Positions 16,539-47,494 of a stretch of 47,494 nucleotides of DNA are shown one piece after another. Each line of letters begins with the position of its first letter. Positions within the stretch are counted from its first letter, which is position 1. The DNA comes from Candidatus Desulfatibia sp. (GTDB lineage Bacteria > Desulfobacterota > Desulfobacteria > Desulfobacterales > UBA11574): NCBI RefSeq assembly GCF_036446775.1, contig NZ_JAZFTO010000315.1:1-47494 (forward strand), given 5' to 3'. The position numbers and the translations under genes were made by a program. Under the pieces are notes generated by a model that saw only the letters and a program-made list of their open reading frames with translations, did not search any database and had not been told where the DNA came from.

Positions 16539-16588
16539 GAAATTAGATTTTCGTTATTTATAAATTGAAAATAAAAAGGAGAATCATT

Positions 16589-18018: not shown

Positions 18019-19172
<1,154 letters not shown>

Positions 19173-19173
<1 letters not shown>

Positions 19174-19288
19174 ATGAATTCGCAAAAAGTCGAATTCAAC
19201 TATAGATGGCTAAGTAAAAAGGTTCATATACCCCCGCCAAACCTCGGCGGGATAAAAAGGCGTAGTAGATGGGACTTTTTACGACGCC
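19173..19288. mobile_element. Small non-coding repeat element (copy 2, no nested insertion) with inverted termini
   Basis: Begins with hairpin gatgaattcg-caaaaagt-cgaattcaac. 19213-19288 matches 6300-6354 plus 6439-6459. The termini tcgcaaaaagtcg (19180-19192) and gactttttacga (19273-19284) are inverted copies of one motif. Confidence 0.6.
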
Positions 19289-19324
19289 ATCAATATTATT
19301 TTTCGTACGAAGGAACATGCCAGA

Positions 19325-24774
<5,450 letters not shown>

Positions 24775-28980: not shown

Positions 28981-30990
28981 TTAGAGAAGGTTTAAGTTCC
29001 AATTCCAAAGTCCGGGCCTTTTTTTCATTTTCACTCCCCTGGGTAAGGGTTCAATCAGATGTACAAACAGACTGTAACCTGCTTTCATTAATAAATCCTG
29101 CTGGGCCCTGATGTCCAGTTCCCAGTTGGGGAACATCCAATAGTCTGAACCATATTGTCGAACCCAGGCTTGCTCGCCCTTGGGGCTGGTAAACGGTTGC
29201 TTGGTTTTCAAATTTTCCACAAGTGTGCGCGATACGCATAAAGGCCAGTTGCCGGCTGTAACGATACCTACCGGCAGGGGGCTGTGCTTGGGCAGTAATA
29301 AATAATCTTCCCGTCCCAGTTCCGGACTGACGATGACCCCGTTAAATCCCAGAGATACCAGGCTGCTAACCGCGAGAGGATTGGTGATATTGCAAAACGG
29401 ACCGGCCCAGAGATTTAAACCTTTGGCCCCGGTAAAAAGCGCTATCTGCCAGGGGGAATTAAGGACAAAATTCCGTCCCCCCTTTTTAAGGACAAAATCG
29501 ACAACCCCCTTTATTTTGGTCTCAGCTTCAGGCCAGATTACAGGCGGCAACCACCACCAAAGTTTGGACACAAGGCCCCTTTGTATCCCTGCCGGGTTTT
29601 TGATCGGCAGCCAGGTCCCGGTTCGTCCCCGGAGCTTTTTGTTGCCAATCTTTCGGTATACCTTTAGTTCAAAAGCTAAGGATCGTTTTCTGGATCTTTG
29701 CGGCAGCCTGGCACAAAAATTTGAAGCATCTACCTGCGACTTTGGAATTTTGTCAAGCTCACCTTCAAGCGCCGTCAACATATTCTCAAGCGTTTTATCG
29801 CGTCTGTCCGTTAAAAATACCGGAGTCCCCGTGGCGGGACTTTTTTTTGAAACAATTTTTAAAAACAGACGCCCTTTTTTAGGAATGAACCTGCGGACCC
29901 TGCTTTTGCCGTGCCACGGCTCATCCTCATAACCGATGCGCAGGGTATCGCCGCATAAAAGTTCCTCTCTGGCAACAATAAACGGTTTTTCTCTCGTCCC
30001 TTTTACGTTTCCAACAAGCAACCCGGAGCCGGTTTGTACGTCGACTTTGACCGGACTTTGAGGTCTTTGCGGCAAAAAATTATAATGGGTTCCAGTACGC
30101 CCTAAAGCCCCGGCAAGGAGTTGCAGAGCCTCTTTTTTCATTTTAGGATCGCTGCCCTGATCCCTTAACATCCGGTAGGCCTGAACCGTATTAAAAACAT
30201 AATGGGGACCTTTTTTGCGGCCTTCAATCTTCCAGGCCCGCACCTGCGGAATGGACAAAAGAATTTTGACCAGCACATCTACGCTGAGATCCTGGCAGGA
30301 AAAAAATTTGGCGGTCTGCTTGTTGTGCGAATAAAGCCGGCGGCAGGGCTGAACGCATCTGCCCCTAAGGCCGCTCTTTCCGCCCAGATAGCTGCTCCAG
30401 TAGCACCTTCCGGAAATCCCGTAACACAGGGCCCCGTGGATAAATACTTCCAGATCCAACCCCTTTGGACAGGCCAGGGCCAGGGCCTTTATCTCGTCTA
30501 TGGAAAGCTCCCTGGGGATAACGATACGGTCCACATCAAGCTTTTTGCGCACAAGTTTCAAAGCTGCATTAAAGCTTACATTGGCAAGTGTCGATAAATG
30601 CAGCCGGCCGGCATAACCTGTTTGCCCGGCCAGCTGCACAAGGGACAGGTCCTGGATGATTATAGCTTCGGGCTTCACCCGCTTTTTCAATTGTTCCAAA
30701 AATCGACCGGCATGATCCAGATCATCGGGCTTTAACAGTGAGTTTAATGCCACATGGACCTTAATCCCTTTGTCACGTGCCATCTGCGCCAGGGATACCA
30801 GTTCCTCGAGTGAAAAGTTCTTAGCTTCCATGCGGGCCGAAAAGTGCTTCAGTCCCAAATATACGGCGTCGGCCCCGGCCGCCATGGCTGCCAGAAAGGA
30901 TGCTTTATTTCCAACCGGTGCCAGAATGGACGGTTTTAGGGATGGCTCTGTTGCTCGCTTCATACAGGTATTATATTGACTTTTATTCAT
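28981..30990 (-). CDS. U32-family peptidase-like protein (long form with C-terminal extension)
   Basis: 669 aa. ILAPVGNKASFLAAMAAGADAVYLG..FSAR, EVFIHGALCYGISGRCYWSSYLGGKSGLRGRCVQPCR (U32 Cys-rich signature). Confidence 0.85.
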   Translation of the reverse strand: MNKSQYNTCMKRATEPSLKPSILAPVGNKASFLAAMAAGADAVYLGLKHFSARMEAKNFSLEELVSLAQMARDKGIKVHVALNSLLKPDDLDHAGRFLEQLKKRVKPEAIIIQDLSLVQLAGQTGYAGRLHLSTLANVSFNAALKLVRKKLDVDRIVIPRELSIDEIKALALACPKGLDLEVFIHGALCYGISGRCYWSSYLGGKSGLRGRCVQPCRRLYSHNKQTAKFFSCQDLSVDVLVKILLSIPQVRAWKIEGRKKGPHYVFNTVQAYRMLRDQGSDPKMKKEALQLLAGALGRTGTHYNFLPQRPQSPVKVDVQTGSGLLVGNVKGTREKPFIVAREELLCGDTLRIGYEDEPWHGKSRVRRFIPKKGRLFLKIVSKKSPATGTPVFLTDRRDKTLENMLTALEGELDKIPKSQVDASNFCARLPQRSRKRSLAFELKVYRKIGNKKLRGRTGTWLPIKNPAGIQRGLVSKLWWWLPPVIWPEAETKIKGVVDFVLKKGGRNFVLNSPWQIALFTGAKGLNLWAGPFCNITNPLAVSSLVSLGFNGVIVSPELGREDYLLLPKHSPLPVGIVTAGNWPLCVSRTLVENLKTKQPFTSPKGEQAWVRQYGSDYWMFPNWELDIRAQQDLLMKAGYSLFVHLIEPLPRGVKMKKRPGLWNWNLNLL

Positions 30991-31073: not shown

Positions 31074-31499
31074 ATGCCTGTAAAGAAAAGTCCGACAGAC
31101 CGAAGACGTTTCATCTCAATGGTGTCCGGGATGCTTTCCGGTCTCCTGCTGACAAAACCGGGAAGTGTGCGGGCCACAAAATCAGAAATTAAACAATTCC
31201 TGGCAAATATTGAGACTGACTTGCTGGTAAGATCCAAACCCTCAAAGCACCCTGCCGTCACTTGGGAACATTATGGAGACGGAATCCGTCTTTACAAAAA
31301 GAACCAGGTAAAAAATATTCCATTTTGCGCCACGAACCGGGTTGGCAAGACCATCTGGGAACACTGTAACGGCATAAATACTCCCTGGGAGATCTCCGCA
31401 TTTGTTCATCAGAAATATCTTGTCCCCCGCCAACAGGCCTATGCTGAATGCCTTGCTTTCATAGCTGCCCTAAAAACAAAAGAAGCGGTCCTACTGTAA
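31074..31499 (+). CDS. PqqD/RRE-like protein with an N-terminal twin-arginine (Tat) signal peptide
   Basis: 141 aa. SPTDRRRFISMVSGMLSGLLLTKPGSVRA-TK has the RR-x-F-I motif, a mild hydrophobic core and a V-R-A cleavage-type site. The C-terminal ~85 aa have the PqqD layout: beta strands VTWEHYGDGIRLY, then NRVGKTIWEHCNGINTPWEISAFVHQKY....AYAECLAFIAALKTKEAV. Confidence 0.7.
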   Translation: MPVKKSPTDRRRFISMVSGMLSGLLLTKPGSVRATKSEIKQFLANIETDLLVRSKPSKHPAVTWEHYGDGIRLYKKNQVKNIPFCATNRVGKTIWEHCNGINTPWEISAFVHQKYLVPRQQAYAECLAFIAALKTKEAVLL

Positions 31500-31503
31500 G
31501 ACC

Positions 31504-31788
31504 ATGAACGCTGCCCAACGATATATAAAAAATAACAACATCGTTTTCAGAGAAGAGGATGACGGTGCTTTTTTGTTTGATCCGGATTCAGGCAATTTGA
31601 AATACTTGAACAACTCCGCCAAAGAGACCTTTTTGATAATAGACGGTCAAAATGATTTAAACCAGATAGCCAATCGCCTGCTGGAACTATACCCTGATGA
31701 GGACGCCGAACAGGTCCGGAATGATGTGGAAAGTTTCCTGCTGGAACTTTTGTCGAATAGCTTTGTCTTCCATACGGGAAGCAATTAA
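31504..31788 (+). CDS. PqqD-family peptide chaperone (RiPP recognition element)
   Basis: 94 aa. IVFREEDDGAFLFDPDSGNLKYLNNSAKETFLIIDGQNDLNQIANRLLELYPDEDAEQVRNDVESFLLELLSNSFV is a textbook PqqD pattern. It starts 4 nt after the previous stop. Confidence 0.8.
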   Translation: MNAAQRYIKNNNIVFREEDDGAFLFDPDSGNLKYLNNSAKETFLIIDGQNDLNQIANRLLELYPDEDAEQVRNDVESFLLELLSNSFVFHTGSN

Positions 31789-31800
31789 CCCGAGAGACCT

Positions 31801-32889
31801 TTGAAAAAGGAATTTATGGCTAATCAGGAAATAAGCTACCCGCTGACAAGCCTTTATCTTTATCTCACCGATCGCTGTAATCTAAGATGCTCCCACTGTT
31901 GGATCTCGCCCGCATTTTCACAGCTTCAGCAAAACGGCATCCCCTTGGATCCTCTGAAAAAGACAATATCAGATGCCGGAGCATTGGGCCTTAACAGTGT
32001 CAAGCTGACCGGCGGAGAACCGCTTTTATACCGGCAACTGGATGAACTACTCACATTTTTGAAATCAAAAGAATTAACCATTTATATCGAAACAAACGGG
32101 ACCCTGATAGATCAAAAGATGATCAAATCTTTCCAGGCTGCCGGGGTGGAGCAGATTTCCGTCAGCCTGGATGCAGCCACGGAAGAAATTCACAATAAAA
32201 TTAGAGGAATTAAAGGCAGCTATGCTCGCACCTTGCAAGGCCTGCACGATCTTTCCCATAGCGGCTTGCAATTCCAAATTATCATGACTCTCCAGCGCAA
32301 AAACCTCAATGAGATACCGGGTATGGTGCAATTAAGCGAAAAGTTGGGGGCCTGTTCTTTAAAAATAAATCATCTGCTTCCTTGCGGGAGAGGAAAAGAG
32401 GCTTTTGATAAAAAAGAAAATCTGGAATTGGAAGAATTAATCCAACTTTACCGATTAGTACAAGAAAAATGGTTGCGACCGGGCACCATGGAAGTTGATT
32501 TCGATCTTCCAGTGGCGTTAAGGTCTATTGAAGATATCAAACGCAGAGGACTCAATGAATGCCGCATTCTGAATATTCTGGGGATTCTCGCCAACGGAGA
32601 CTTTTCCATCTGCGGCATCGGCCAGACGGTTGAAGAATTGCGCATGGGAAATCTCTCGCACGATTCGGTCGGCAGTGTCTGGCAAAACAATCCTATTCTA
32701 AACGAGCTGCGCCAATCCCTAACCAGCAAGCTTGAAGGAGCCTGCGGAGGCTGTATTTTTAAGTTTCAGTGCCTGGGAGGCTGCCGGGCTAATGCTTACT
32801 CTCTTACCAAGGATCTGCATGCACCGTATTTTTTGTGCCAACAATACTATGAATCCGGACTATTCCCATCATCAAGATATATCAAATGA
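31801..32889 (+). CDS. Radical SAM / SPASM-domain peptide-modifying enzyme (no. 1)
   Basis: CNLRCSHCW (CxxxCxxC). SPASM motifs C...GDFSIC (Gx4C) and CGGCIFKFQCLGGC (Cx2Cx5Cx3C) plus a trailing Cys (FLC). The start is either TTG 31801 or ATG 31816. Confidence 0.9.
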   Translation: MKKEFMANQEISYPLTSLYLYLTDRCNLRCSHCWISPAFSQLQQNGIPLDPLKKTISDAGALGLNSVKLTGGEPLLYRQLDELLTFLKSKELTIYIETNGTLIDQKMIKSFQAAGVEQISVSLDAATEEIHNKIRGIKGSYARTLQGLHDLSHSGLQFQIIMTLQRKNLNEIPGMVQLSEKLGACSLKINHLLPCGRGKEAFDKKENLELEELIQLYRLVQEKWLRPGTMEVDFDLPVALRSIEDIKRRGLNECRILNILGILANGDFSICGIGQTVEELRMGNLSHDSVGSVWQNNPILNELRQSLTSKLEGACGGCIFKFQCLGGCRANAYSLTKDLHAPYFLCQQYYESGLFPSSRYIK

Positions 32890-32892
32890 GAC

Positions 32893-33804
32893 ATGGAACT
32901 AACTATAAACCTGGCCGGAACAAAGATTGATATAATCTTTGCAGGCCGGTCAAATAATGCCATACCTCTGTGTAACCACTACTTCAGGAATTTTATTCAT
33001 CCTAACAGGGGAGAAAGCGCCGCAGTCAAAATAAGTGTCTTAGAAAAAGCAACCGGCAGGTTGCCGGTTCAGGAAACAAACGGGGAACCGATTTTTGAAC
33101 AGCTGCTGTCCACCCCGGATGTGGTCCAATGGCTTAGGGAAGTCCCGCCGTACAGAAAGGATTTCCTCATCGATGAAACCACCATCTGTTCATTTTGCAT
33201 GAACGGACTGCTGCTCTTTAGCCCTGAAACTGCGATTGGACATATCTACCTTTTAAAACCAGGACCCCGGGTGTTCCGACCACTCCACCGGCTGTTATGG
33301 ATTTATTTTGCCCAGGTTCTGGGAGAAAAAAGGGCCTGTTTTGTACATGCCGCGGCATTGACCAGAAAAGCAGGCGGCCACCTTTTTTTTGGAGACTCCG
33401 GGGCCGGTAAAAGTACCCTGGCCGGCGCCTGCGGGCGCGACACCGTAATATCGGATGACAGTCCTGTTTTCCGCAAGCGCAATGGCAAATATCACGTATT
33501 CCCTTCCCCTTATCATCAGATGGGCCGGCTTAAAATTCTTAATAAGGAAACTCCTGACATATGTGCTGAAGTGAAAGGGTTATATTTTCTGGTCAAAGAT
33601 GACAACCTCTCTATTAACAAAATCTCAAAGAAAAAAGCCGTCTCCATGATCATAAACCGCTATATTCTTTTTTTCCCCTATCTTTCACCCCGGGCCAAAA
33701 GGTTGCTATTTGACCTTTTTCTTGAAGCATGCCATAATTTACATACTAATTATCTTCATTATTTGCCAGGCCGGGACGTGTGGAGTGTTATTGCCGACGG
33801 CTAA
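32893..33804 (+). CDS. HPr-kinase-like P-loop protein (HprK-related kinase family)
   Basis: 303 aa. CFVHAAALTRKAGGHLFFGDSGAGKSTLAGACGRDTVISDDSPVF mirrors the HprK core (VH...G.GVL..G.SG.GKS....L...G..L.(A/S)DD). The ATG is 3 nt after the rSAM stop. Confidence 0.75.
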   Translation: MELTINLAGTKIDIIFAGRSNNAIPLCNHYFRNFIHPNRGESAAVKISVLEKATGRLPVQETNGEPIFEQLLSTPDVVQWLREVPPYRKDFLIDETTICSFCMNGLLLFSPETAIGHIYLLKPGPRVFRPLHRLLWIYFAQVLGEKRACFVHAAALTRKAGGHLFFGDSGAGKSTLAGACGRDTVISDDSPVFRKRNGKYHVFPSPYHQMGRLKILNKETPDICAEVKGLYFLVKDDNLSINKISKKKAVSMIINRYILFFPYLSPRAKRLLFDLFLEACHNLHTNYLHYLPGRDVWSVIADG

Positions 33805-33818
33805 AACTGGAGGATGAA

Positions 33819-34217
33819 ATGACAGGCTCAAAAGAAGATAAGCAAACCACCCGGATTCCATATGAACCTCCCCGGCTATTAGATCTGGGCGGAGGGGTTG
33901 CCTATGCTAAAAGAGGAAAAGGAGGAAAAGGAGGTTGCAAGCCTGGTGGTAGCCCGGCGGGCAGGAAATGCAAACCAGGCCAATCGGCTACGGGCAGCCA
34001 ATGCAAACCAGGAGGTACGGCGGGCAGCAAATGCCAATCAGGAGGTGCGGCAGCAGGCGGCGATTGTAGGCCGGGAGGTACGGCAGCAGGTGGGAACTGT
34101 AGGACTGGAACTACGGCGGCAGGTGGGAAATGTCAGCCTGGTGGAACCGCAGGTTCGAAATGCCAAAGTGGAAGTACGGCCGGTGGCAGGTGTCGAACTG
34201 GCGCCACTGTGGGATAA
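33819..34217 (+). CDS. Candidate RiPP precursor peptide, 132 aa: RRE-binding leader plus nine Cys-containing repeat modules
   Basis: GGAGGA (33809-33814), then ATG 33819. Sequence: MTGSKEDKQTTRIPYEPPRLLDLGGGVAYAKRGKGGKGG-CKPGGSPAGRK-CKPGQSATGSQ-CKPGGTAGSK-CQSGGAAAGGD-CRPGGTAAGGN-CRTGTTAAGGK-CQPGGTAGSK-CQSGSTAGGR-CRTGATVG. Leader residues 15-24 fit YxxPxLxxxG. The ORF-track start (GTG 33780) overlaps the upstream gene and is rejected. Confidence 0.65.
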   Translation: MTGSKEDKQTTRIPYEPPRLLDLGGGVAYAKRGKGGKGGCKPGGSPAGRKCKPGQSATGSQCKPGGTAGSKCQSGGAAAGGDCRPGGTAAGGNCRTGTTAAGGKCQPGGTAGSKCQSGSTAGGRCRTGATVG

Positions 34218-34248
34218 TAATAGATAAGATGAAACCTTTGCAAAGGTC

Positions 34249-35415
34249 TCAGAATATAAACGCCCGGTACAAATCGTTACTTACTAAGCTGATAATCTCC
34301 GCAGCCCTTCTGAAGTAACCTGATCTTTTGCCGGACCATGATTTATCTTGGATTATCTGAGCCATTACCTCGTCTTTGGGAAAAACAGTCTCTTTGATAA
34401 ATTTGAGTTTATTACCTGTTCCCTCTAAATTGCAAAGCCACAAGAGATAACAAAGTTCTTCCGAAGAAAAACCCCGGATCTTCAAACGCAGGATATGTTT
34501 TTCCAGGATGCTCAGCCTGTTGATTCCCAGCTCCTGCTTGACCTGCAAGGGTACTTGCAGGTCAAAAATTCTCTCCACCAAAATCAGGGCATAAAGTACA
34601 ATTCTCTCCTGTTGCCAGAATCGGGCTCGTTCTACGACTTCTCCCCATCCGCCGGGGATGCCGGCTAATTCCAGCAGGCATTCATGCAGATCCACCAGCC
34701 AGATCAGCCGGGAATAGCTGTGCTTCAGGGCATGAGCGGCCAAAGCTACAACATTGTCAAAAGGGTCCGGAAGTAAGAGACTATCCTGTTGCTCAAAGAA
34801 GGGTACGGCCCTTTCCCACATGGGGGTAAGGTCGGCCGGAAAGATATACCGCCTATTATGAATGCGGTCCAGATTCAAGATATGGATGTGAATGTCAACT
34901 ATAAAATCACCCTTGTAAAGGATATCCGGATAGGCGGGATTGGTCGCATAGTAACCGGCTTGCCCTAACAATTGTTTAAAACCTTCTTTATGGTCCGGTT
35001 TGACCATAAAGTCCGCATCACCCAGAGGCCTGAGCCCTATGTCGCCGTACATTCTGGTAAGGGCTAAGCCCTGCAGGGCCATAACCGTAAATCCGGCCTG
35101 TTCCAGCTTGTCCGCAAGTGCCCTGGCGTTGGCAATAACTGCCAGGGTATATTCTTTGGTCTGATTATATCTGTTTTCGAGACGTTTTAAGGCCGTTTTC
35201 GAAACAGCATCACAGAGGTCCAGATCTCTCAGGTGGTAATAAAAAAATCCGGCAACCCCGTCCAGTTCCGCCAGCGCCGCTAAATTGTCCCAGGGAACAT
35301 CCTGCTTAACAAAGTGCCGCACATAATCCTTCTCAGCCCGCTTAAGATGCCGCCTCGATACGCAGCGAATAAATTTAACAATCTCCCACCAGCCTACCAT
35401 CATATATCCTCTCAA
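34249..35415 (-). CDS. Uncharacterised nucleotidyltransferase family protein (NTP_transf_5-like)
   Basis: 388 aa. GLRPLGDADFMVKPDH (G..D.D nucleotidyltransferase-type motif) and AAHALKHSYSRLIWLVDL helical domain. This family commonly accompanies HprK-like and PqqD genes. Confidence 0.65.
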   Translation of the reverse strand: MRGYMMVGWWEIVKFIRCVSRRHLKRAEKDYVRHFVKQDVPWDNLAALAELDGVAGFFYYHLRDLDLCDAVSKTALKRLENRYNQTKEYTLAVIANARALADKLEQAGFTVMALQGLALTRMYGDIGLRPLGDADFMVKPDHKEGFKQLLGQAGYYATNPAYPDILYKGDFIVDIHIHILNLDRIHNRRYIFPADLTPMWERAVPFFEQQDSLLLPDPFDNVVALAAHALKHSYSRLIWLVDLHECLLELAGIPGGWGEVVERARFWQQERIVLYALILVERIFDLQVPLQVKQELGINRLSILEKHILRLKIRGFSSEELCYLLWLCNLEGTGNKLKFIKETVFPKDEVMAQIIQDKSWSGKRSGYFRRAAEIISLVSNDLYRAFIF

Positions 35416-35433
35416 AAAGTGAGACCTTTGATC

Positions 35434-36528
35434 TTAGCCGGGAAGTCGTCCTCCTGCTTTTAAAAACCGTTTTAGACAGGCATCGGGACTTGGATGATTT
35501 TCATTTCCCAGAATCAAATATGCCAGGGCCGGACAGTTCCCCGTACAATAGTCGATATATTCGCAGCCTTTGCAAAATTCAAAATCGCTCAAAGGAATAT
35601 TGTAGCGTCCTCTCAATCGCTTAAGCTCCGGATGTTTTTGCCAAACCGTTTTGAGATCATCCCGATTGATGCGCCCCAATTCAATATGGCTCATCTGAAT
35701 GCACGGCACCAGTACTCCGTCAGCCCGCACGGCCATCGTATTCATCGGTCCGCCGCAAGCTGAAAGATATCCTCCCTCAAAGTCATCTTTTTCTCCGGTC
35801 CGCCGGGCCTCTTCCATCATATTCCAACTACCGGCCTCGGCTAAGGGGCCTGCGGTGGCGCTGATTCTTCCGTTGTATTTTTCACTTAAGTTTAAAAGCT
35901 CCTCCATCGCCATACTACGCTCTTCAACCGTAAGTTGGACCTGTTCGGCATTCCGGCGGCAAAGTCCCATATATGACGCCGCATTGGTAGAAAAATCATC
36001 AAGTCCGATATCTTCCAGCAGCAGACGGGCAATTCTATCCAACTCTCTGACATTTTTTCTGTGAATGGTAACCCTTACGGATACAGAGACACCGTGTCTT
36101 TGCAAGCACTTGATGCCCTCGATTGCTTTGAAGAAATTCCCCCGGCCCCGAAAAGCGTCATGGGTCAGCGGTATGGAGCCGTCGATGGAGACTTGAACGC
36201 CGTCGCAGCGCCCGGTCGAAGCTAAAAAAGCGGCCGTTTCATCCGCAATCAACGTGCCGTTACTTAATATATCGAACCGCATCCGGTTGCTGACAATCCC
36301 TGCTACAATTTGCCTCAAATCCTCCCGATAAAAAGGCTCTCCGCCCTGAAGAGTCACATGCAGGACCGCGCATCGATTCAACTCCTCGAAAAACTTGAGC
36401 CATTCTTCAGCGGGCAGGTCCCGGCCCACATCGCCCGCTCCGGAAAAATGGCTGCAATACTTACATCGCAGATTACACCTGTTTGTTATAGCCAGGTCCA
36501 GTGCTCTTGGCGTCTTCATTATCTTCAT
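35434..36528 (-). CDS. Radical SAM / SPASM-domain peptide-modifying enzyme (no. 2)
   Basis: 364 aa. CNLRCKYC (CxxxCxxC), GGEP motif. SPASM motifs CGGPMNTMAVRADGVLVPC (Gx4C) and CKGCEYIDYCTGNC (Cx2Cx5Cx3C) plus a distal Cys (PDAC). Confidence 0.9.
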   Translation of the reverse strand: MKIMKTPRALDLAITNRCNLRCKYCSHFSGAGDVGRDLPAEEWLKFFEELNRCAVLHVTLQGGEPFYREDLRQIVAGIVSNRMRFDILSNGTLIADETAAFLASTGRCDGVQVSIDGSIPLTHDAFRGRGNFFKAIEGIKCLQRHGVSVSVRVTIHRKNVRELDRIARLLLEDIGLDDFSTNAASYMGLCRRNAEQVQLTVEERSMAMEELLNLSEKYNGRISATAGPLAEAGSWNMMEEARRTGEKDDFEGGYLSACGGPMNTMAVRADGVLVPCIQMSHIELGRINRDDLKTVWQKHPELKRLRGRYNIPLSDFEFCKGCEYIDYCTGNCPALAYLILGNENHPSPDACLKRFLKAGGRLPG

Positions 36529-36540
36529 AAAATATTCGGG

Positions 36541-37929
36541 TTAGAATGATGAAAAAGATACTCGCTTGGCCGGTTCAGGACTTGATACTTCCGCCTTTTC
36601 CAGTTGGGGCAGGACCGTAATAATGCCGACCATAAACCAGAAAGGCTCCATAATGCGGACAATTATAAATGTGTTGGCCCCGAGGGCGTGAAACAGAAGA
36701 CCGGTGAGACCGGCCAGAAAACCGATGGTCAGTCCTTGAAGATAAGGAGTTTTAAGTTCCTTTAAATTAATAATTGCTAATTTAAAGATAGAATATAAAA
36801 GATAGATAAATGCCGTTAATCCGATAACACCCGTCTCCACCAGCACCCTCGGAAACTGCGCATCTAAGAACCTGTATCCGGTAACGCCGTATCCGAACAC
36901 AGGATGTTTGGTCCAGTCACGCAATGCATCTTGCCAGCTCCTTAACCTGGCCGAGGTGGAAGTGTCCAACCTCACATCACCTACAGTAACTTGCTGGCCA
37001 GGATGTTCGCGTTGCGTAAAAGTAAAACTGATTCTCTCTTTAACCGTCGAGGGAAGCAAAAGGGGGCTTAATGCTAAAAAAAGAAGCATTAGGCCGACAA
37101 TTATAACCCTCTTTTCAGACATCAGACCTAAAACCAGGCACGCGGGGATGAACGCCAGATAAGAAGCTCTGGACTGCGTAAAAAGCAAAGGGGGTATAAT
37201 GGCAACTATCAGAACGGCAAGCAACTGCTTTGACAACAATTTTTCAACCTTTGAAAACAATCCTGCGGTAATTGCCCCTATAAATACAAGGTATCCTCCC
37301 ATAGTGTTGGGTTCGCCGACTTCACCTTCAAACGGCGCAGAGACTCTGCCTCCGCCAGGAATCTGCAGCATCCCGATGATCGATACCACAAAACCTGTAA
37401 GCAACAAACATATCAAAAATCGATTTGCCTGCTTCAGGTTTGCAACATGATTGACTATCATAAAAAAGACGATCATGTATTCAAAATATTTTACAACAAA
37501 GAAAAAACCGGTTGTGGGAGATACTCTGCCGGCCATGATGCCGAATCCGGTTGATATAATGCATGCCAACATATAAAAAAGAATGGGCTTATTCAATGGC
37601 GTTTTCAAAACCAGCCCCAGCTCCTTGTGAACCGCGGTTTTGGCAAACCAACTGAAACCGATAACAACCAGCAGAAAGTCTTCCAGCCGCACAGTTACAC
37701 CTCTTCCGAGAGAGGCCCCCTCGGTCGTACCTACCATGATTTCAGGCGACAGCAGCATGGAAAAAATTAAGATATACAAGCCCCACTCTATGTTGATAAA
37801 GGCCACAGCAAAGATTATCAAAGCTATTAGGCCCTGAAATAGTAGGGGGGAATACATATATTGTGATGAAAGAAAGCCCAAAAAAAGGGCAACAGCCAGA
37901 AATGATATGGTCAATAAAAAGGATCGCAC
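36541..37929 (-). CDS. O-antigen ligase / Wzy_C-family polytopic membrane protein
   Basis: About 10-12 predicted TM helices. Wzy_C-type segment LLFTQSRASYLAF and periplasmic loop ...ARLRSWQDALRDWTKHPVFGYGVTGY. The ORF track extends to 38046 and overlaps the upstream gene by 115 nt. I prefer GTG 37929, 2 nt after the upstream stop; ATG 37857 is an alternative. Confidence 0.75.
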   Translation of the reverse strand: MRSFLLTISFLAVALFLGFLSSQYMYSPLLFQGLIALIIFAVAFINIEWGLYILIFSMLLSPEIMVGTTEGASLGRGVTVRLEDFLLVVIGFSWFAKTAVHKELGLVLKTPLNKPILFYMLACIISTGFGIMAGRVSPTTGFFFVVKYFEYMIVFFMIVNHVANLKQANRFLICLLLTGFVVSIIGMLQIPGGGRVSAPFEGEVGEPNTMGGYLVFIGAITAGLFSKVEKLLSKQLLAVLIVAIIPPLLFTQSRASYLAFIPACLVLGLMSEKRVIIVGLMLLFLALSPLLLPSTVKERISFTFTQREHPGQQVTVGDVRLDTSTSARLRSWQDALRDWTKHPVFGYGVTGYRFLDAQFPRVLVETGVIGLTAFIYLLYSIFKLAIINLKELKTPYLQGLTIGFLAGLTGLLFHALGANTFIIVRIMEPFWFMVGIITVLPQLEKAEVSSPEPAKRVSFSSF

Positions 37930-37931
37930 AA

Positions 37932-40220
37932 TTAAAATATATCTTGCCAGAATATTCCTAACACCAGCAAAGCCAGCGTTATGATGAGTACTACTATGGT
38001 CAAGGGTTTTATTTGAAACGCAGGCGGCAAATGTTCTTGAAACCATCTTGTTATGGAACTGCTTTGTTTATCTTCTATATCTTCTTCCGACCCATAATAA
38101 TACTGAGTATGATACTTGAAATAATCAGGACCGGCCTCCGCCTTCACGTTGTTTAAGACGACACCCCATACATTGGCATTGATATTGTCCAGGGTCGTTT
38201 TAGCGCGTTTCAATACCCCCCGGCCAATTTTTCCCACTGTGTAGACCATGACAACACCGTCTACATGCGGTCCGATTTCGGTGGCATCAACTACAGGCAA
38301 AATCGGGGGGGAATCTATAATGATGATATCATAGCTTTGATAAGCCTTCTGTAAAAGTTCAACAAACCGTTTTGAACGTAAGATTTCAGCCGGGTTGGGC
38401 GGTTTTGTTCCGGCAGTGATGATATTAAGGTTGTCCAGCCCCGGGGTTTTCAGAATTTCCTCTAATTCAAAATCTCCCAGCATGATATCTGTAATGGTAT
38501 TTATGATATCTTTATACTGATAGTTTCCCAGAACGCAATCCGTCAAACCGGGTCCTTTTTCCAATCCAAAAATCTTATGGATTACAGGTTTGCGCAAATC
38601 CGCCTCCAACAGCAGTACTCTGCTGCCCGCTTGAGCCATACTGAGCGCCAGGTTGACCGCGTTAAAGGTTTTTCCTTCTCGCACAAAAGAGCTGGTAATC
38701 AGAAACGATTTTCCTTGTTTGTCCAGACTCATAAACTCAATGTTCGATCTGAGAGTGCGGAAGGCTTCCGCGGATAAGGACTTGGGATCATAGTGAGTAA
38801 CCAATTCCCGTTCTCTTCCTGTTTCTAAAACCTGTTGACTATCACGGCTCTTGCCCGTCTCCACTTTCCCCATAAAAGGTATAACTCCCAGGACCGGAAC
38901 CTGTAGTAAATTCTCCACATCCTCTATGGTCCCCATGGAAGTATCAAACACCTCAGCGCCAAAAGCAAAAACAAACCCTACGATCAAACCCATAATAATG
39001 CCCGTAAAGATAATCATCATTTTAGAAGAGACATTGAAAGGAGCCGCAGGCACCAAAGCCGGTTTAACAATGACAACCTCCTCCACTTTGCCAGACTCCT
39101 TAATCAGGGTCTCCTGGTGTTTGGTTTTCAATTGGGAATATAAAGATTCCTGTAGTTGCACCTCTCTTTGCATTCTGACCAGCTTCAGAGCCTTTTCCGG
39201 AAGGCTCCGGCTCTCTTTCCTCAAACGATTCAGCTTTGTTAAAAGATCAGCTTCGCGTTTTGCTAAAATACTTGAAAAGGCCTCAAGCTCTTTTCTTATC
39301 TCAAGAATTATGGCTTGAATCTGATCATTTACCCCGACTACCTGCGGATGCTCTTTAGTAAAGTCAATCAGCAGGGTTTCCCTCTTTAAAAGCAAATCGC
39401 TCAGTTTGACCCTCAATGCATGTATAGGAGAATCTTTGTCCGGGGCAATCAAGGTTCTATTAAATTTTTCCGGAGACAAATCAGTCTTTTCTGCGATCAG
39501 TTTTAATAGCGATACAACTTCATTTTTTTGTTTTTTTGCCTTCTCATGCTCTAATTCAACATCGTACAACCGATTTAACGTATTGCTGGTTTGAGCATCC
39601 ATGGATATCAAGGCATAGCCTTCCTTAAAGGCCCGGAGTTCATCCTCTGCCTGTTGTAGGAGATTTGAGGTCAACTGCAGCTGCTTTTCGATAAAGGCCT
39701 TGGTTTCGAATGTCTTCCTGTTTTTCTCCTGGATATTGTAATTCCTATATGCTCTGGTAACAGCGTTTGCTACAAGTGCCGCTTCCTGGGCATCTCTCGA
39801 TATTACTCTGATATTAATGATATTGGTACCAGGCTCCTGTTCCGCTTTTATTAAAGCCTTCAGACGCTGGACCTTGGCCAAAAGGGATTTGGAATTGCGA
39901 ATCTTTTCAGCGGAAATATTCTTAGGAATCCAATCTAACTCCTTTGCTGTTTGTGACAGTACCGGGAAACTGGTAATAATATAAGCATGCGTAATCAGAT
40001 TTTCCGATTCCTCAAAAAATCCACCCATAAAAAAGTCCGCCATGGTTTTGGTGCGTTCGATTTTAATGGCGGCACTGGCTTCATATAAAGGAACGGGCTC
40101 ATTCAATTTTGCAAAGCCATAGCTGAAGACCCCGGCCAAAAAAGTCAGCAGTACAATAATGGTCTTTCTCTTTCTGATGATCCGCCAGTAATCTCTCAGA
40201 TCGACGTCATATTGAGCCAT
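37932..40220 (-). CDS. Polysaccharide co-polymerase / tyrosine autokinase (second Wzc-like protein) with an extra C-terminal TM segment
   Basis: 762 aa. DLRDYWRIIRKRKTII Wzz-type N-terminus, coiled-coil periplasmic domain. Kinase motifs: Walker A SSFVREGKT, A' LLEADLRKP, B IIIDSPP. Tyr cluster YFKYHTQYYYGSEED, then LTIVVLIITLALLVLGIFW. Confidence 0.85.
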   Translation of the reverse strand: MAQYDVDLRDYWRIIRKRKTIIVLLTFLAGVFSYGFAKLNEPVPLYEASAAIKIERTKTMADFFMGGFFEESENLITHAYIITSFPVLSQTAKELDWIPKNISAEKIRNSKSLLAKVQRLKALIKAEQEPGTNIINIRVISRDAQEAALVANAVTRAYRNYNIQEKNRKTFETKAFIEKQLQLTSNLLQQAEDELRAFKEGYALISMDAQTSNTLNRLYDVELEHEKAKKQKNEVVSLLKLIAEKTDLSPEKFNRTLIAPDKDSPIHALRVKLSDLLLKRETLLIDFTKEHPQVVGVNDQIQAIILEIRKELEAFSSILAKREADLLTKLNRLRKESRSLPEKALKLVRMQREVQLQESLYSQLKTKHQETLIKESGKVEEVVIVKPALVPAAPFNVSSKMMIIFTGIIMGLIVGFVFAFGAEVFDTSMGTIEDVENLLQVPVLGVIPFMGKVETGKSRDSQQVLETGRERELVTHYDPKSLSAEAFRTLRSNIEFMSLDKQGKSFLITSSFVREGKTFNAVNLALSMAQAGSRVLLLEADLRKPVIHKIFGLEKGPGLTDCVLGNYQYKDIINTITDIMLGDFELEEILKTPGLDNLNIITAGTKPPNPAEILRSKRFVELLQKAYQSYDIIIIDSPPILPVVDATEIGPHVDGVVMVYTVGKIGRGVLKRAKTTLDNINANVWGVVLNNVKAEAGPDYFKYHTQYYYGSEEDIEDKQSSSITRWFQEHLPPAFQIKPLTIVVLIITLALLVLGIFWQDIF

Positions 40221-40234
40221 TGCCGAAAACCTTC

Positions 40235-40503
40235 CTAATTGAGCTAAAACTCAATTAGGTGTTATCCGTTATTTGTTATTAGTTATTGGTTTTAAGTGAA
40301 AGATAAACAGAATTATACCCTAATCGAGCCAAAATTCGATTAGGCGTCTGTGGTCAGCTGTCCGTAGTCAGTGGTTTTACAGGTTCTTAGGGCCTCTTTT
40401 TGTGTTTCACCTGTAGTTGAAATATAATCTCGCTTCTTAAAGCTTAGCAACGGACGACGGACAAAGGACAACGGACACCCAATTGAGCGTTATCGCTCAA
40501 TTG
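40235..40503. repeat. Composite structured intergenic element: three AATT-stem hairpins interleaved with heptamer arrays
   Basis: Hairpins: ctaattgag-ctaaaa-ctcaattag (40235-40258), ctaatcga-gccaaaat-tcgattag (40320-40343), caattgagcg-ttat-cgctcaattg (40480-40503). Arrays: gttatcc/gttattt/gttatta/gttattg (40261-40288), gtctgtg/gtcagct/gtccgta/gtcagtg (40346-40373) and the complementary-type acggacg/acggaca/aaggaca/acggaca (40450-40477). Confidence 0.6.
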
Positions 40504-40508
40504 AAATA

Positions 40509-42680
40509 CTATTTTGTCAATATATCAGCAGCACTGTCAAAGCCTTTAATGATGGTAGTAGGCATAAGGATAAGTTCCATAAAGGGCTTAATTCGCTTAA
40601 CAAACAGGTTTGCATCACCGATAAAACTTCGCGGTACAAACACCAGATCTCCGTTTGTCAGGGCAACATTCTGGGTCTGGTCGCCTTCCTCCATAAGTTT
40701 TTTAAGATCAGCAGAAATGACCTCGGGTCTGGTGGGGTCCCCCCTGATAATCTTGGTACTGTCCTCATGCGCGAATACGGTAACGCCCCCGGCCTGTGAA
40801 ACGACATCCAGCAGGCGCATCTCTGAACCGCTAAAAGCATATACGCCCGGCTTGCCCACTTCACCAAAGATATACACCCGATTGTCCTCTTTGGTAATAA
40901 GGGGAATATAAATTACATCACCGCTATCCAGCACCACATCCTGGCCGGTTTCACCCCGTAAAATAGCATTGAACAGGTTCAATTTTAATACCTGCCCTTT
41001 CTTGCGGCGCAAACCTACTTCAGCCAGATTGGCGTCTTGATGCAAGCTAACGTTCTGGGAAAATATTTCCACGATTGTAGTCCGGCCGGTCAGATAGTTT
41101 TTACCTCCGCCGGTTCTGCCAGCCCAGGCCGCTCCCGGCCCTAAAACTGTTACGAATTTGCTTTTATATTCCTTGACTATAACGTCCACCCGGGGATTTC
41201 TTATATACTTGACAAGCCTGCCGGTTATAATATCATCCACCTGCGAGGCGGTAAATCCGTTGACATAAAGATTGTCCACCATGTTAAACGAAATTTTGCC
41301 CGCAGGCCTAACCGTTATTAGTTCTCTGGTCGCAGTAGGTCCTTTCCACAAAGTTATTTCAATAACATCGCCGGGCCCGATTTTATACTCCGGAACCCCG
41401 GATACAGTTGTAAAGACACTGTTTTCTTCAAGTTCGGCAGAAATCGAAGGAAGTTCCGGAGCGGCAACTTTCTGTGCTTGGCGGACTCTCGATGAAACGA
41501 CACCCTTTTCTTTTCCCAGCCAGATTTTGATGCCCTCTCCAAAGCCGGCAGCACAGATATCATCGCGCCCGTCTTTATCTAAATCGGCGATCTCGATTCC
41601 ATAGAAGATACCTTTGGATGGGAACCGCCCTTTGATGGGCGTCCAGGAATCTGATCCTGCGTTTTTCCAGGCCTTGATCCCCTTAGAATTTACGGAACCG
41701 GCCAGAAGATCCATCAGACCGTCTCCATCCAGGTCAACAGCAAGGGCTTGCCAGAAGCTGTCGTTTTCTTCCAGACTCGATGTGCCGATGAAGTCTCCGC
41801 GTCCATCTCCTATAAAAATCTGAACACCTTTTCTGTAAGAGCCGGCTAATAAATCCAGCTTGCCGTCAGCGTTAACGTCTCCAACGCTCAGACCATAAAA
41901 ACTGCCTTTACGTACCGGTAAAGTCGACGACCAGCCCCCGGTACCGTCTCCGAGCCAGACCTTCAAAGCGCCATAGCTGCCCCAGCCGGCTCCCGCCAGG
42001 TCCAAAAACCCGTCTTGATCAAAATCAGCCAACGCTACATCCATGAAAATCCCTGTAACCGTAGGACCCGACTCCATAAGCCAGGCGCCTTTTCCATCTC
42101 CCAGCCAGACCTGAATACCGCCTTGGGTATCCGAGGTCGCATTGGCGGCAATGATATCCATATGTCCATCCCCATTAACATCAGCCGTCTCCACGCCCTC
42201 GTAGTTATTTATTTCGACAGGGTTGATACCTCTGAGCCACCTGCGCTCGGACTGATTCAACCACACCATAATTCCCGAGGCTTCTCTTTGAACGGACAGC
42301 ACGATATCCTTAAGTCCGTCTTCATCGAAATCCGCCACGGCAACGGATCTAACATCCCCTTTGAACGGCAGGTATTGAGGTGCAGACATATTACCGGAGC
42401 CGTCCCCATACCAGATAGCTACAGTCCCGGGGAATGTACTCCCTCCGACGATATCCGGATTACCATCGTTGTCCAGATCAGATACGGCCACCGCCCGGTA
42501 TTTTCCTGATGTGGCCAGGTCGCCGGCTTTGGCCCATTGAGCCGGTTGTTCTTGGCCTATATCTTGAGCACACCCAATAGTTAATATAAGCCCCAGCAAT
42601 CCCACATGAAACAGCAGAATTTTATAAAGGGACCTTCCAGTTTTATTAAAGTTCCTTTTCCACATTTTATAGATATACAA
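40509..42680 (-). CDS. Lipoprotein fusing a seven-repeat FG-GAP/VCBS beta-propeller to a Wza-type polysaccharide export module (Poly_export + SLBB)
   Basis: 723 aa. Signal plus Cys (LGLILTIGCAQD). Seven D-x-(D/N)-x-D-G-x-x-D repeats (DLDNDGNPD, DFDEDGLKD, DVNGDGHMD, DFDQDGFLD, DVNADGKLD, DLDGDGLMD, DLDKDGRDD). Then YKIGPGDVIEITLW (Poly_export signature) and two SLBB-like units (FVTVLG..., VYIFGEVGKPGVY...). Confidence 0.8.
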   Translation of the reverse strand: MYIYKMWKRNFNKTGRSLYKILLFHVGLLGLILTIGCAQDIGQEQPAQWAKAGDLATSGKYRAVAVSDLDNDGNPDIVGGSTFPGTVAIWYGDGSGNMSAPQYLPFKGDVRSVAVADFDEDGLKDIVLSVQREASGIMVWLNQSERRWLRGINPVEINNYEGVETADVNGDGHMDIIAANATSDTQGGIQVWLGDGKGAWLMESGPTVTGIFMDVALADFDQDGFLDLAGAGWGSYGALKVWLGDGTGGWSSTLPVRKGSFYGLSVGDVNADGKLDLLAGSYRKGVQIFIGDGRGDFIGTSSLEENDSFWQALAVDLDGDGLMDLLAGSVNSKGIKAWKNAGSDSWTPIKGRFPSKGIFYGIEIADLDKDGRDDICAAGFGEGIKIWLGKEKGVVSSRVRQAQKVAAPELPSISAELEENSVFTTVSGVPEYKIGPGDVIEITLWKGPTATRELITVRPAGKISFNMVDNLYVNGFTASQVDDIITGRLVKYIRNPRVDVIVKEYKSKFVTVLGPGAAWAGRTGGGKNYLTGRTTIVEIFSQNVSLHQDANLAEVGLRRKKGQVLKLNLFNAILRGETGQDVVLDSGDVIYIPLITKEDNRVYIFGEVGKPGVYAFSGSEMRLLDVVSQAGGVTVFAHEDSTKIIRGDPTRPEVISADLKKLMEEGDQTQNVALTNGDLVFVPRSFIGDANLFVKRIKPFMELILMPTTIIKGFDSAADILTK

Positions 42681-42754: not shown

Positions 42755-42810
42755 AGTATCGAGTATCGAGCATCAAGCATCAAGTATCGAGCATCAAGTA
42801 TCAAGTATCA
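42755..42810. repeat. Eight in-phase heptamer repeats AG(T/C)ATC(G/A)
   Basis: agtatcg agtatcg agcatca agcatca agtatcg agcatca agtatca agtatca. The last unit overlaps the stop codon of the ExeA-like gene. The array lies upstream of the FG-GAP/Wza gene. Confidence 0.8.
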
Positions 42811-43605
42811 TTCCAGATCCTCTATGGCATGCTTGACAATCTTCTTGTCGATAACCCGGACTTTCATCATCATACCGATCAGCAGGCTGCGTTCGCATAC
42901 GTTGTTTATCCTGAGCGGTATTCCTGCGGCGTAATTATAAACCGATTTGACCGCCTCTTTTGAAAAGATGCCCCGTACAGCCCCGGCCTTTTCGAGGCGA
43001 AATAATATATAGCGTATCGTATCTTGAAGATCCATGGGACTCAAATCGTATTTAATCGCAATTCTTTCTTTCAGGGGCTTAAGATTAGCAATCTTTTCTT
43101 TTAACGGAAGCTGTCCTATTAAGATCAAAGTAACCAGAAATTGGTTGTCAGATTGTAAATTGAGCAGCATTCTCAGTTCTTCAAAACTGGATGGATCCTT
43201 AATAAGATGGGCCTCATCAATAATCAGGACGGTAATTAAGTTCTGCTGAAAATTTTTTGAAAGCCTTTTCTTAAGCCGTTCTAACAGAATGGTTTTGGAA
43301 TCTTCATCAGCTGTTTCTTCCATTGCCAGCAAAATGGCCCGTAAGAAATCGACGGAGTTTAAATCCGGATTGACGATGGTTGTAACTTCAAAACGATCTT
43401 TTGAGAGGTGGTTTATTAATACCTGACTGACCGTGGTTTTCCCGGAGCCTACTTCACCTGTCAGCATAGCGGCCCCTTTACGGTGTTCAACAGCGTATAA
43501 TAGACGAATAAGCGCCTCTTCGTGTGGATTCGATTTAAAAAATAAGTTGCGGTCAGGAACATTTTTAAAGGGTTCTTCTTTGAAATTCCAATATTCTAAA
43601 TACAT
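42808..43605 (-). CDS. ExeA/GspA-like AAA ATPase (AAA_22-type)
   Basis: 265 aa. MYLEYWNFKEEPFKNVPD (ExeA-type N-terminus), Walker A GEVGSGKTT, Walker B VLIIDEAH. Confidence 0.8.
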   Translation of the reverse strand: MYLEYWNFKEEPFKNVPDRNLFFKSNPHEEALIRLLYAVEHRKGAAMLTGEVGSGKTTVSQVLINHLSKDRFEVTTIVNPDLNSVDFLRAILLAMEETADEDSKTILLERLKKRLSKNFQQNLITVLIIDEAHLIKDPSSFEELRMLLNLQSDNQFLVTLILIGQLPLKEKIANLKPLKERIAIKYDLSPMDLQDTIRYILFRLEKAGAVRGIFSKEAVKSVYNYAAGIPLRINNVCERSLLIGMMMKVRVIDKKIVKHAIEDLE

Positions 43606-47270: not shown

Positions 47271-47494
47271 TTTTTTCCTCCTTGGATGTGGTAATCAGCT
47301 CCTTTATCACCCGATTAACATCTTCTTCAGTAAGGGATGGATATATAGGAATGGATAAAGACTCCTTCCAAGCCTTTTCTGTTCGAGGAAATCCCTTCAA
47401 GCCTAAATACTGATGAAGGGGCCGGTAAACCGGCCTGGCACACCCGATCCCTTCTCCCTTAAGTTTTCTAATCCAGGAACTGGAATCGGTTCCC
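47254..47494 (-). CDS. DegT/DnrJ/EryC1/StrS-family aminotransferase, C-terminal fragment (start lies beyond the window end)
   Basis: Not in the ORF track. Reverse translation gives ...GTDSSSWIRKLKGEGIGCARPVYRPLHQYLGLKGFPRTEKAWKESLSIPIYPSLTEEDVNRVIKELITTSKEEKSEQHK*. This is the characteristic C-terminal pattern (GIG....Y.P.H......FP..E......LS(L/I)P..P.LT.EDV..V). The stop at 47256-47254 overlaps the WecA-like GTG by 17 nt. Confidence 0.7.
   Translation of the reverse strand, partial: GTDSSSWIRKLKGEGIGCARPVYRPLHQYLGLKGFPRTEKAWKESLSIPIYPSLTEEDVNRVIKELITTSKEEKSEQHK

Follow-up and report, generated by a model that had tools for sequence, protein, structure and literature searches.

The 47,494-nt stretch of DNA analysed here (contig NZ_JAZFTO010000315.1 of Candidatus Desulfatibia sp.; hereafter the window) carries on its minus strand an operon for exopolysaccharide (EPS) export whose last two genes encode a radical SAM (rSAM)/SPASM enzyme and a nucleotidyltransferase-fold enzyme (NTase), both of which belong to a peptide-modifying SynChlorMet (SCM) cassette. 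Gene identities were assigned from the open reading frame (ORF) listing together with Pfam and NCBIfam scans, and the window was compared with related genome and metagenome loci, labelled L followed by a number. The 3′ part of the minus-strand series comprises a Wzc-type polysaccharide co-polymerase/BY-kinase (37932–40220; Pfam Wzz, GNVR and AAA_31; TIGR01007 at 170 bits, over its cutoff), a Wzy_C-domain membrane protein (36541–37929; Pfam Wzy_C, 4.5e-11), the rSAM/SPASM enzyme ScmE (35434–36528; TIGR04250) and, as the last gene of the operon, an NTP_transf_5 enzyme (34249–35415; PF14907, 1.3e-43). The longest ORF for the Wzy_C protein begins at 38046, and a start at GTG 37929 is supported by the resulting length of 462 aa, which is that of the called homologues. 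With this start, the gap between the Wzc stop and Wzy_C is 2 nt, and the Wzy_C stop (36541) lies 12 nt from the ATG of ScmE (36528). The ScmE stop (35434) is followed after 18 nt by the TTG of the NTP_transf_5 gene (35415), or after 30 nt if ATG 35403, with GAGAGGA ahead of it, is the true start. There is no room for a terminator in any of these three gaps.

The same strand runs on upstream through a fusion of an FG-GAP beta-propeller with a Wza-type outer-membrane polysaccharide exporter (40509–42680; Pfam FG-GAP_3, Poly_export and SLBB), an ExeA-like AAA_22 ATPase nearest to the XrtA/PEP-CTERM-associated ATPase (42808–43605; TIGR03015 at 199 bits, cutoff 324.5), an HD-GYP (HD_5) protein with a SPOR domain (43772–45886; Pfam HD_5, 7.6e-25, and SPOR, 6.3e-11) and a WecA-like polyprenyl-phosphate HexNAc-1-P transferase (46110–47270; Pfam Glycos_transf_4, 5.9e-35; TIGR02380, 1.7e-34, under its cutoff). 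The start of the WecA gene is overlapped by the 3′ part of a gene for a DegT-type sugar aminotransferase (47254–47493, minus strand), truncated by the end of the window and identified by a phmmer match to DegT of L045; the same DegT to WecA order recurs in L128, L129 and L131. Spacers are looser in this upstream part (WecA/HD-GYP 223 nt, HD-GYP/AAA_22 166 nt, AAA_22/Wza 127 nt, Wza/Wzc 288 nt), and the truly tight part of the chain is only Wzc-Wzy_C-ScmE-NTase. The original prediction, made from the sequence of the window, had described this minus-strand series with gaps of about 2, 12 and 18 nt and its continuation up to WecA; every gene that it named was found in the ORFs and domain scans, and the measured gaps agree with it. 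Furthermore, the order Wzy_C, ScmE, NTP_transf_5 recurs in L111 and L129, whose Wzy_C proteins are 96% and 75% identical to that of the window, and Wzy_C is followed by ScmE also in L033/L048, L042–L044, L047, L049 and L076. Since the same order recurs in relatives, the gene chain is not a chance arrangement.

The 288-nt spacer between Wza and Wzc (40221–40508, minus strand) holds promoter-like hexamers and three palindromic units of about 26 nt (40478–40503, 40317–40343 and 40233–40258, of the CCTAATTGAGC...GCTCAATTAGG type) that the rest of the window lacks. At this spacer the depth of metagenome contigs jumps 5–20 fold, and many contigs end there. The palindromes suggest either a dispersed repeat of the repetitive extragenic palindromic (REP) kind or an operator array, and a Wzc-Wzy_C-ScmE-NTase sub-operon may start at this position. 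The N-terminal FG-GAP/VCBS propeller of the exporter spans about 400 aa, and its fusion to Wza is kept in all close relatives, including Desulfonema limicola. The C-terminus of Wzc contains the Tyr cluster YFKYHTQYYYG, after which the protein continues into a hydrophobic tail, PLTIVVLIITLALLVLGIFWQDIF (37932–38050), encoded by DNA that overlaps with the 5′ extension of the longest ORF for Wzy_C.

The rSAM/SPASM protein encoded after Wzy_C scored 616.6 bits against TIGR04250, for which the trusted cutoff is 400, and keeps the CxxxCxxC motif and the SPASM cysteines; an exact-protein look-up returned no identical entry on record. The rest of the cassette converges on it from the plus strand. The first of these genes encodes a PqqD protein, a recognition element (RRE) for peptides that are made by ribosomes and modified after translation (RiPPs), preceded by a twin-arginine (Tat) signal peptide (DRRRFISMVSGMLSGLLL...VRA; 31074–31499; Pfam PqqD, 2e-7) whose RR-x-F-[IV] motif is conserved in 6/6 homologues. 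There follow an ScmD-like PqqD/RRE leader-binding protein (31504–31788; Pfam PqqD, 2.8e-11; TIGR04248 at 33.4 bits, cutoff 100), a second, divergent rSAM/SPASM maturase resembling ScmF (31801–32889), an ScmC-like HprK-related kinase with the Walker A motif GDSGAGKST (32893–33804) and the precursor peptide (33819–34217). For the ScmF-like protein, TIGR04251 was the best match by far and aligned over the full length, at 329.9 bits under a cutoff of 400. The kinase gave weak matches to TIGR04355 and to TIGR04249 (17.1 bits, cutoff 125), and its counterparts in L045 and L129, 55% and 86% identical to it, are annotated as Pfam ScmC (PF27840). The precursor consists of the leader IPYEPPRLLDLGGGVAYA and a core of nine units of the form C-x-x-G-x-[ST]-[AP]-x-G-x(1-2); across 10 precursors from different loci, the Cys at position 0 was found in 65/65 units, Gly at +3 in 64/65, Ser or Thr at +5 in 38/65 and Ala or Pro at +6 in 56/65. 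The convergent precursor and NTase genes are separated by a 31-nt spacer with a weak hairpin (34230–34251; dG −11.4 kcal/mol, z −1.4), which is possibly a bidirectional terminator of the two operons. On the other side, a gene for a U32-family peptidase (28981–30990, minus strand; Pfam Peptidase_U32) forms the conserved right flank of the cassette site.

SCM cassettes are a family defined only computationally in TIGRFAMs/NCBIfam; ScmE-like proteins number at least 3318 at E ≤ 1e-60. The literature search found no mention of SynChlorMet or Scm genes and no paper joining rSAM/SPASM/PqqD proteins with exopolysaccharide, and it found PF14907 only in an unrelated phosphonate paper. The window shares with the family the ScmE equivalog, two PqqE-like rSAM/SPASM enzymes, a PqqD protein and an HprK-related protein, and it differs from it in that ScmF, ScmD and ScmC fall under the family cutoffs. 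Canonical loci read ScmD-ScmE-ScmF-precursor-ScmC, whereas in the window ScmE lies on the strand opposite to ScmD, ScmF and ScmC, so that the contiguous co-directional order is broken into two convergent units, with an extra Tat-signal PqqD protein and with ScmE and NTP_transf_5 fused to the EPS operon. Such a split convergent cassette is found also in L003, L005, L014, L045 and L129. The genes regularly present in SCM neighbourhoods are NTP_transf_5, ScmC, an S26-type peptidase and an ABC exporter; NTP_transf_5 was found in most SCM loci with enough flank. Because of this regularity, the rSAM/NTase pair at the end of the operon belongs to the peptide system and not to EPS synthesis: the rSAM gene is ScmE, and NTP_transf_5 is a regular SCM member. 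Exporter and peptidase, present in most other SCM loci, are absent from the window, which shares its Tat-PqqD protein with L003, L005, L010, L014, L045, L111 and L129 (hereafter type 2), and they are missing in 6/7 type-2 loci with usable flanks. Leader-dependent hitch-hiking of a RiPP precursor on the Tat pathway is a possible mode of export. Ranthipeptide and sactipeptide maturases (PapB, StsB, AlbA, QhpD-like) resemble the window in the pairing of rSAM/SPASM enzymes with an RRE partner and in a core that is rich in Cys, repeated and regular in its Cys spacing; they differ in that ScmE and ScmF scored 83–113 bits against these families, whose cutoffs are 340–850.

Comparison of the window with its closest relatives revealed discordant histories for the cassette and the EPS genes. 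In the pair formed by the window and L129, EPS genes and U32 are 64–80% identical, while the values for the cassette are 94% for ScmE, 91% for the NTase, 87% for ScmF, 86% for both ScmC and ScmD, 76% for Tat-PqqD and 64% for the precursor. The EPS genes and U32 of L049 are closer to those of the window (79–94%), yet L049 holds the other cassette type (type 1), with ScmE 79% and the remaining cassette proteins 23–38% identical. The position after Wzy_C exists in several states. It is empty in L055, where U32 directly follows Wzy_C, and in L130, with no SCM gene after Wzy_C and no U32 seen. It is occupied by a type-1 cassette in L042–L044, L047, L049 and Candidatus Desulfatibia vada (L033/L028), flanked by U32 except in L047, whose contig ends first, and by a type-2 cassette in the window, L111 and L129. 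L131 has only the NTase, followed by RecC instead of U32, and L128 has the NTase and a convergent partial cassette on a contig that ends before any U32. U32 flanks the cassette in L028, L042–L044, L049 and L129. To judge from these identities, the cassette is a swappable module, and its horizontal exchange takes place at one fixed site, flanked by Wzy_C and U32. The site behaves like the variable region of a surface-structure locus, which fits a surface-exposed product. Two further features of this site were observed. The Candidatus Desulfatibia vada contigs (L028 and L033) break inside ScmE, with an N-terminal part 92% and a C-terminal part 72% identical to the window, as if the assembly had broken where conserved cassette sequence gives way to swapped sequence. 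In addition, type-1 cassettes at the same site (L042 14348–15517; L044; L049; L087) encode a PRMT_C-type methyltransferase, which has no counterpart in the window cassette. Altogether, the data indicate that a conserved Wzx/Wzy-type EPS operon has its 3′ end in this region and that an SCM cassette has been grafted onto this end, at a fixed site.

The association of SCM cassettes with glycan genes was quantified in a species-level scan, with one genome per species, that yielded 33 loci with an ScmE relative (56–92% identity), 32 of them usable for context. These loci belong mostly to Desulfobacterota, and also to Chlorobium, Nitrospirae, Omnitrophota, Methanotrichaceae, Victivallales and Saganbacteria. 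Neighbours were labelled by phmmer with window proteins and Pfam-annotated seeds within the available flanks. Glycan or EPS-export neighbours, either WecA-DegT-PIG-L-WbqC-GT4 blocks (GT4, glycosyltransferase family 4) or Wza/Wzc modules, were present in 13–14 of the 32 loci and in none of eight control loci centred on unrelated, non-ScmE rSAM/SPASM genes (L034–L041). Wzc was present in 5 of the 32, and WecA was directly adjacent in 6 (L001, L002, L003, L005, L010 and L020). WecA-type genes are few per genome, so that this adjacency is far above chance. The link was also found in 5/5 long metagenome contigs picked for length alone, in which HD-GYP-ATPase-Wza-Wzc-Wzy_C-ScmE... or GT4-AsnB-WbqC-PIG-L-DegT-WecA adjoins the cassette, and 8/8 type-2 cassettes lie beside WecA or EPS genes. 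At least eight gene orders join SCM to glycan genes across Desulfobacterota, Omnitrophota and Chlorobium: WecA followed by ScmD, by Tat-PqqD or by ScmE; the NTase converging on WecA; Wzy_C followed by ScmE; HD-GYP or Wzc followed by ScmD; and the mixed order of the Omnitrophota locus L020.

These results bear out the general idea of the original prediction, that a RiPP-like system is tied to glycan and EPS genes above chance, and they correct its details. As a check, it had asked whether the rSAM/NTase pair always travels with Wzy_C and Wzc; the pair does not, as the type-2 loci L003, L005, L010 and L045 have WecA and show no Wzy_C within the 2.4–10 kb of flank on that side, and Wzy_C adjacency is limited to L076 and to loci in which ScmE shares about 74% identity or more with that of the window. 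The condition that it had set for refutation, that homologous RiPP clusters usually sit in unrelated contexts, holds for about half of the loci and fails for the 13–14 that adjoin glycan or EPS genes. Glycosyltransferases hidden from the phmmer seeds in the unrelated-context loci were ruled out by a Pfam scan of 109 flanking ORFs, in which the 14 unlabelled SCM loci showed no glycosyltransferase enrichment and had TPR, methyltransferase and GNAT families instead; for this reason, these loci are truly unlinked. The link between SCM and glycan genes is therefore real but facultative. As a side observation, the WbqC-PIG-L-DegT-WecA block beside SCM (L045 4269–6104; L046 19284–20750; L003) always comes with two membrane proteins, one of 474–488 aa and one of 111 aa, which are candidates for a missing transferase or ligase. 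The larger one (unk474/unk488) was also weighed as a hidden Wzy; it has no Pfam match and a PHP-like look, with an INDHDR motif.

A precedent for sugar addition to a peptide is provided by lasso peptides. In pseudomycoidin biosynthesis, the HprK-like kinase PsmK phosphorylates the C-terminal Ser, and PsmN is required to add one or two hexoses on that phosphate (PMC6993621). The window, like PsmK/PsmN systems and PadeK of paeninodin, encodes an HprK-like kinase and an "uncharacterised nucleotidyltransferase" together with a PqqD-type RRE. The model of the window NTase obtained with AlphaFold2 (AF2) has a pLDDT of 93 and a GDAD metal-binding motif of the DxD type found in PsmN, and its best PDB matches are structures of ANT(2″)-Ia (5kqj, 5cfs and 4xje), two of which (5cfs and 4xje) are the templates reported for PsmN (PMC6993621). 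On the other hand, the window differs from the lasso systems in lacking a lasso cyclase or protease, in having two rSAM/SPASM enzymes acting on a multi-Cys repeat peptide, in its Gram-negative host and in the location of its genes in an EPS locus. By analogy with PsmK and PsmN, ScmC and NTP_transf_5 would constitute the best-precedented route to a sugar-bearing peptide, with a better precedent than transfer by a Wzy_C ligase.

From these elements we propose a composite function for the locus, which we favour tentatively, as a possibility that falls just short of probable. ScmE and NTP_transf_5 would be expressed by read-through with Wzc and Wzy_C, so that maturation of the peptide would be switched on together with EPS production. 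In the cytoplasm, ScmD would present the precursor to ScmE and ScmF, and the Cys of each C-x-x-G-x-[ST]-[AP] unit would be cross-linked. ScmC would then phosphorylate Ser/Thr of the precursor, and NTP_transf_5 would add a sugar or a nucleotide to that phosphate or to a hydroxyl in the manner of PsmK/PsmN, with a donor coming perhaps from the neighbouring DegT/WecA-type sugar pathway. The Tat-signal RRE, replacing the ABC exporter and S26 peptidase, would bring the peptide, once modified, into the periplasm or onto the cell surface, and its final location would be in or on the EPS matrix. We consider it likely that peptide and glycan are functionally linked, and possible that a peptide-sugar conjugate is made.

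Several observations weigh against this composite function. A read-through transcript was not seen: X25 alone among the metatranscriptome runs shared words with ScmE, and its short contigs, from a related strain (90–95% identical), match ScmE and Wzc in part, with divergent sequence upstream of the start of ScmE. We inferred the cross-link type, the phosphorylation, the sugar addition and the Tat hitch-hiking alike. The likeness of the window NTase to PsmN is one of shared remote PDB templates only. Homologous recombination through the conserved flanks alone can explain the swapping of cassettes. Finally, about half of the SCM loci lie in unrelated contexts with no glycan neighbour, so that the cassette can work alone and its link to glycan genes may be regulatory or incidental; and the NTase may act on polysaccharide instead of peptide, since it occurs in an EPS operon of D. 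limicola that has no SCM genes.

The strongest alternative is that no biochemical link exists and that SCM makes a free secreted RiPP (a signal, an antibiotic or a metal binder) whose genes landed in a recombination hot spot. This is what the unrelated contexts of about half of the ScmE loci, with no glycosyltransferase enrichment in the 14 flanks scanned, would lead one to expect, and it agrees with type-1 cassettes bringing their own ABC exporter and S26-type peptidase and with a site that may be empty, type 1 or type 2 with discordant identities. It accounts poorly for the at least eight orders that join SCM to WecA blocks or Wza/Wzc modules in Desulfobacterota, Omnitrophota and Chlorobium, for WecA adjacency far above chance, for a type-2 variant that has no exporter and lies beside glycan genes in every case, and for NTP_transf_5 and HprK-like/PqqD genes flanking unrelated copies of the same EPS module. 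We regard it as unlikely, although it deserves serious consideration. A bolder form of the composite function, and an improbable one, is that SCM, at least of type 2, makes a cross-linked repeat peptide that is phospho-glycosylated or joined to a Wzy-dependent polysaccharide as primer, cap or anchor after hitch-hiking on the Tat-RRE; the product would be a RiPP-glycan, a "proteoglycan-like" EPS, and the module would be exchanged like capsule serotype genes.

Another possibility is that NTP_transf_5 is an enzyme of the EPS pathway that adds a nucleotide- or phospho-linked group to the polysaccharide or to its lipid-linked precursor and is recruited secondarily by SCM, ScmE being then the only foreign gene in the operon. 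NTP_transf_5 occurs in 11 of 29 Wzy_C loci of at least 10 kb and often lies directly upstream of Wza, as in L077, L079, L082, L087, L109 and L123; in cultured D. limicola (L131; CP061799.1), the series DegT-WecA-HD-Wza-Wzc-Wzy_C is followed by NTP_transf_5 alone, with no rSAM, kinase or precursor gene; and ANT(2″), the nearest solved fold, acts on a sugar hydroxyl. Several of these loci have non-orthologous genes of peptide type beside NTP_transf_5: L082 encodes an ScmC-like kinase, a PqqD protein and an rSAM/SPASM protein, L077 an HprK_rel_A-like kinase, L096 an rSAM/SPASM fragment and L109 a signal-peptidase-NTase fusion with an ABC gene. Against an EPS role, NTP_transf_5 is present in SCM loci that have no EPS genes (L008, L013, L024, L026 and L027), and it comes together with an HprK-like kinase, a pairing found also in lasso-peptide clusters. 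Moreover, with 91% identity between the window and L129 against 64–80% for the EPS genes, the NTase travels with the cassette. We consider the EPS role improbable, and retain NTP_transf_5 as a member of the peptide system in the composite function.

The role of the Wzy_C protein was addressed by a reciprocal scan, which yielded 80 metagenome loci with Wzy_C relatives (33–96% identity). Wzc lies directly upstream of Wzy_C in 40 of the 41 loci with enough sequence, with Wza ahead of Wzc, and in many loci GT4 genes come after Wzy_C; in L082 the next gene encodes a Wzx-type flippase (Polysacc_synt). Orthologous operons with no SCM gene at all were found in L055, which reads WecA-HD-GYP-ATPase-Wza-Wzc-Wzy_C-U32, and in L130, a complete 7.2-Mb Desulfobacterales genome. 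PDB searches with single sequences were unproductive for Wzy_C, the NTase and the kinase; a 67-sequence Wzy_C profile matched in the PDB only the ligase WaaL (7TPG, E = 1.4e-5). The AF2 model of Wzy_C (pTM 0.79) resembled WaaL 7TPG (TM 0.58/0.65) and then RodA/FtsW, which are SEDS polymerases (TM 0.4–0.5). Neither sequence nor fold tells a Wzy_C ligase from a polymerase. As for a Wzy polymerase, a Wzy_C/GT-C-like multi-span protein is encoded here with a polysaccharide co-polymerase (Wzc) and an outer-membrane polysaccharide exporter (Wza), and the match to the O-oligosaccharyltransferase family model TfpM (NF058641) reached 21.9 bits against a cutoff of 600. Because Wzy_C comes after Wza-Wzc and before Wzx and GT4 genes, and occurs in operons with no SCM gene, it is most likely the EPS repeat-unit polymerase and not a dedicated peptide O-glycosylase.

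The original prediction had suggested that the cross-linked peptide may be an acceptor or primer for the polysaccharide of this locus, giving a peptide-anchored EPS or glycopeptide. In this model, Wzy_C would be a ligase of the PglL/PilO or WaaL type that puts a WecA-initiated undecaprenyl-PP glycan on Ser/Thr of the exported peptide. The model could invoke the Wzy_C domain itself, the weak TfpM and PEP_O_lig_1 matches, WaaL as the only solved relative and the best match in both sequence and fold, an operon with no Wzx or glycosyltransferase beyond WecA, a low-complexity acceptor-like peptide encoded nearby whose core repeats hold a conserved [ST]-[AP] dipeptide, a Tat-signal RRE that implies a leader-bearing peptide reaching the periplasm, and ScmE directly after Wzy_C in many relatives; but the same family sits in Wza-Wzc-Wzy_C-Wzx-GT loci and orthologous operons that have no peptide genes, the type-2 loci L003, L005, L010 and L045 have WecA but no Wzy_C within 2.4–10 kb of flank on that side, the fold also resembles SEDS polymerases and the TfpM score is far below its cutoff, so this mechanism is improbable and found no support. 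As Wzy_C is the operon's ordinary polymerase candidate, a ligase mechanism is not to be taken at face value, and the kinase/NTase route of the composite function is preferred.

Compared with Wzx/Wzy-dependent export of the E. coli group 1 type (Wza-Wzc-Wzy), the window shares a Poly_export/SLBB Wza, a Wzc with a Tyr cluster, Wzy_C and a WecA-type initiator. It differs in that its operon has no Wzx, Wzb or repeat-unit glycosyltransferases other than WecA (Wzx and such transferases are present after Wzy_C in distant L082-type loci), and in having the FG-GAP propeller on Wza and a built-in HD-GYP/SPOR protein and ExeA-like ATPase. The best NCBIfam matches of the ATPase, the exporter and the kinase are families associated with XrtA/PEP-CTERM EPS loci, all under their cutoffs (TIGR03015, 199/324.5; TIGR03027, 136/180; TIGR03018, 129/231), and the ORFs of the window that were scanned include no exosortase. 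Elsewhere in the window, a second Wza and Wzc pair lies on the plus strand (837–4791), so that, in this organism, 47 kb encode no fewer than two machines for polysaccharide export. Genes for a DegT-like aminotransferase, an Fe-alcohol dehydrogenase and a 1254-aa GlmS/SIS-like fusion are grouped at 16565–23089; in D. limicola, a SIS protein and an Fe-alcohol dehydrogenase adjoin the same EPS operon and a Wzx flippase.

SCM was already known as a computational family, and the EPS machine is an ordinary one. What is new is a split cassette variant with a Tat-RRE and no exporter, the fusion of the cassette to an EPS operon with exchange at a fixed site, and the finding that Wza-Wzc-Wzy modules are more widely associated with PF14907, HprK-like and PqqD genes. 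For the SCM family, the analysis adds a recognisable precursor family built of C-x-x-G-x-[ST]-[AP] units in tandem, a regular gene set with the HprK-like kinase and the NTP_transf_5 enzyme among its members, and a repeated, facultative physical link to undecaprenyl-phosphate sugar pathways and Wza/Wzc/Wzy machines. If this link is biochemical, RiPP chemistry would be joined to surface-polysaccharide assembly, and the PF14907 enzymes that sit in many EPS loci would gain a function; if it is only regulatory, the locus would still clearly exemplify an EPS locus whose swappable variable region is a peptide cassette.

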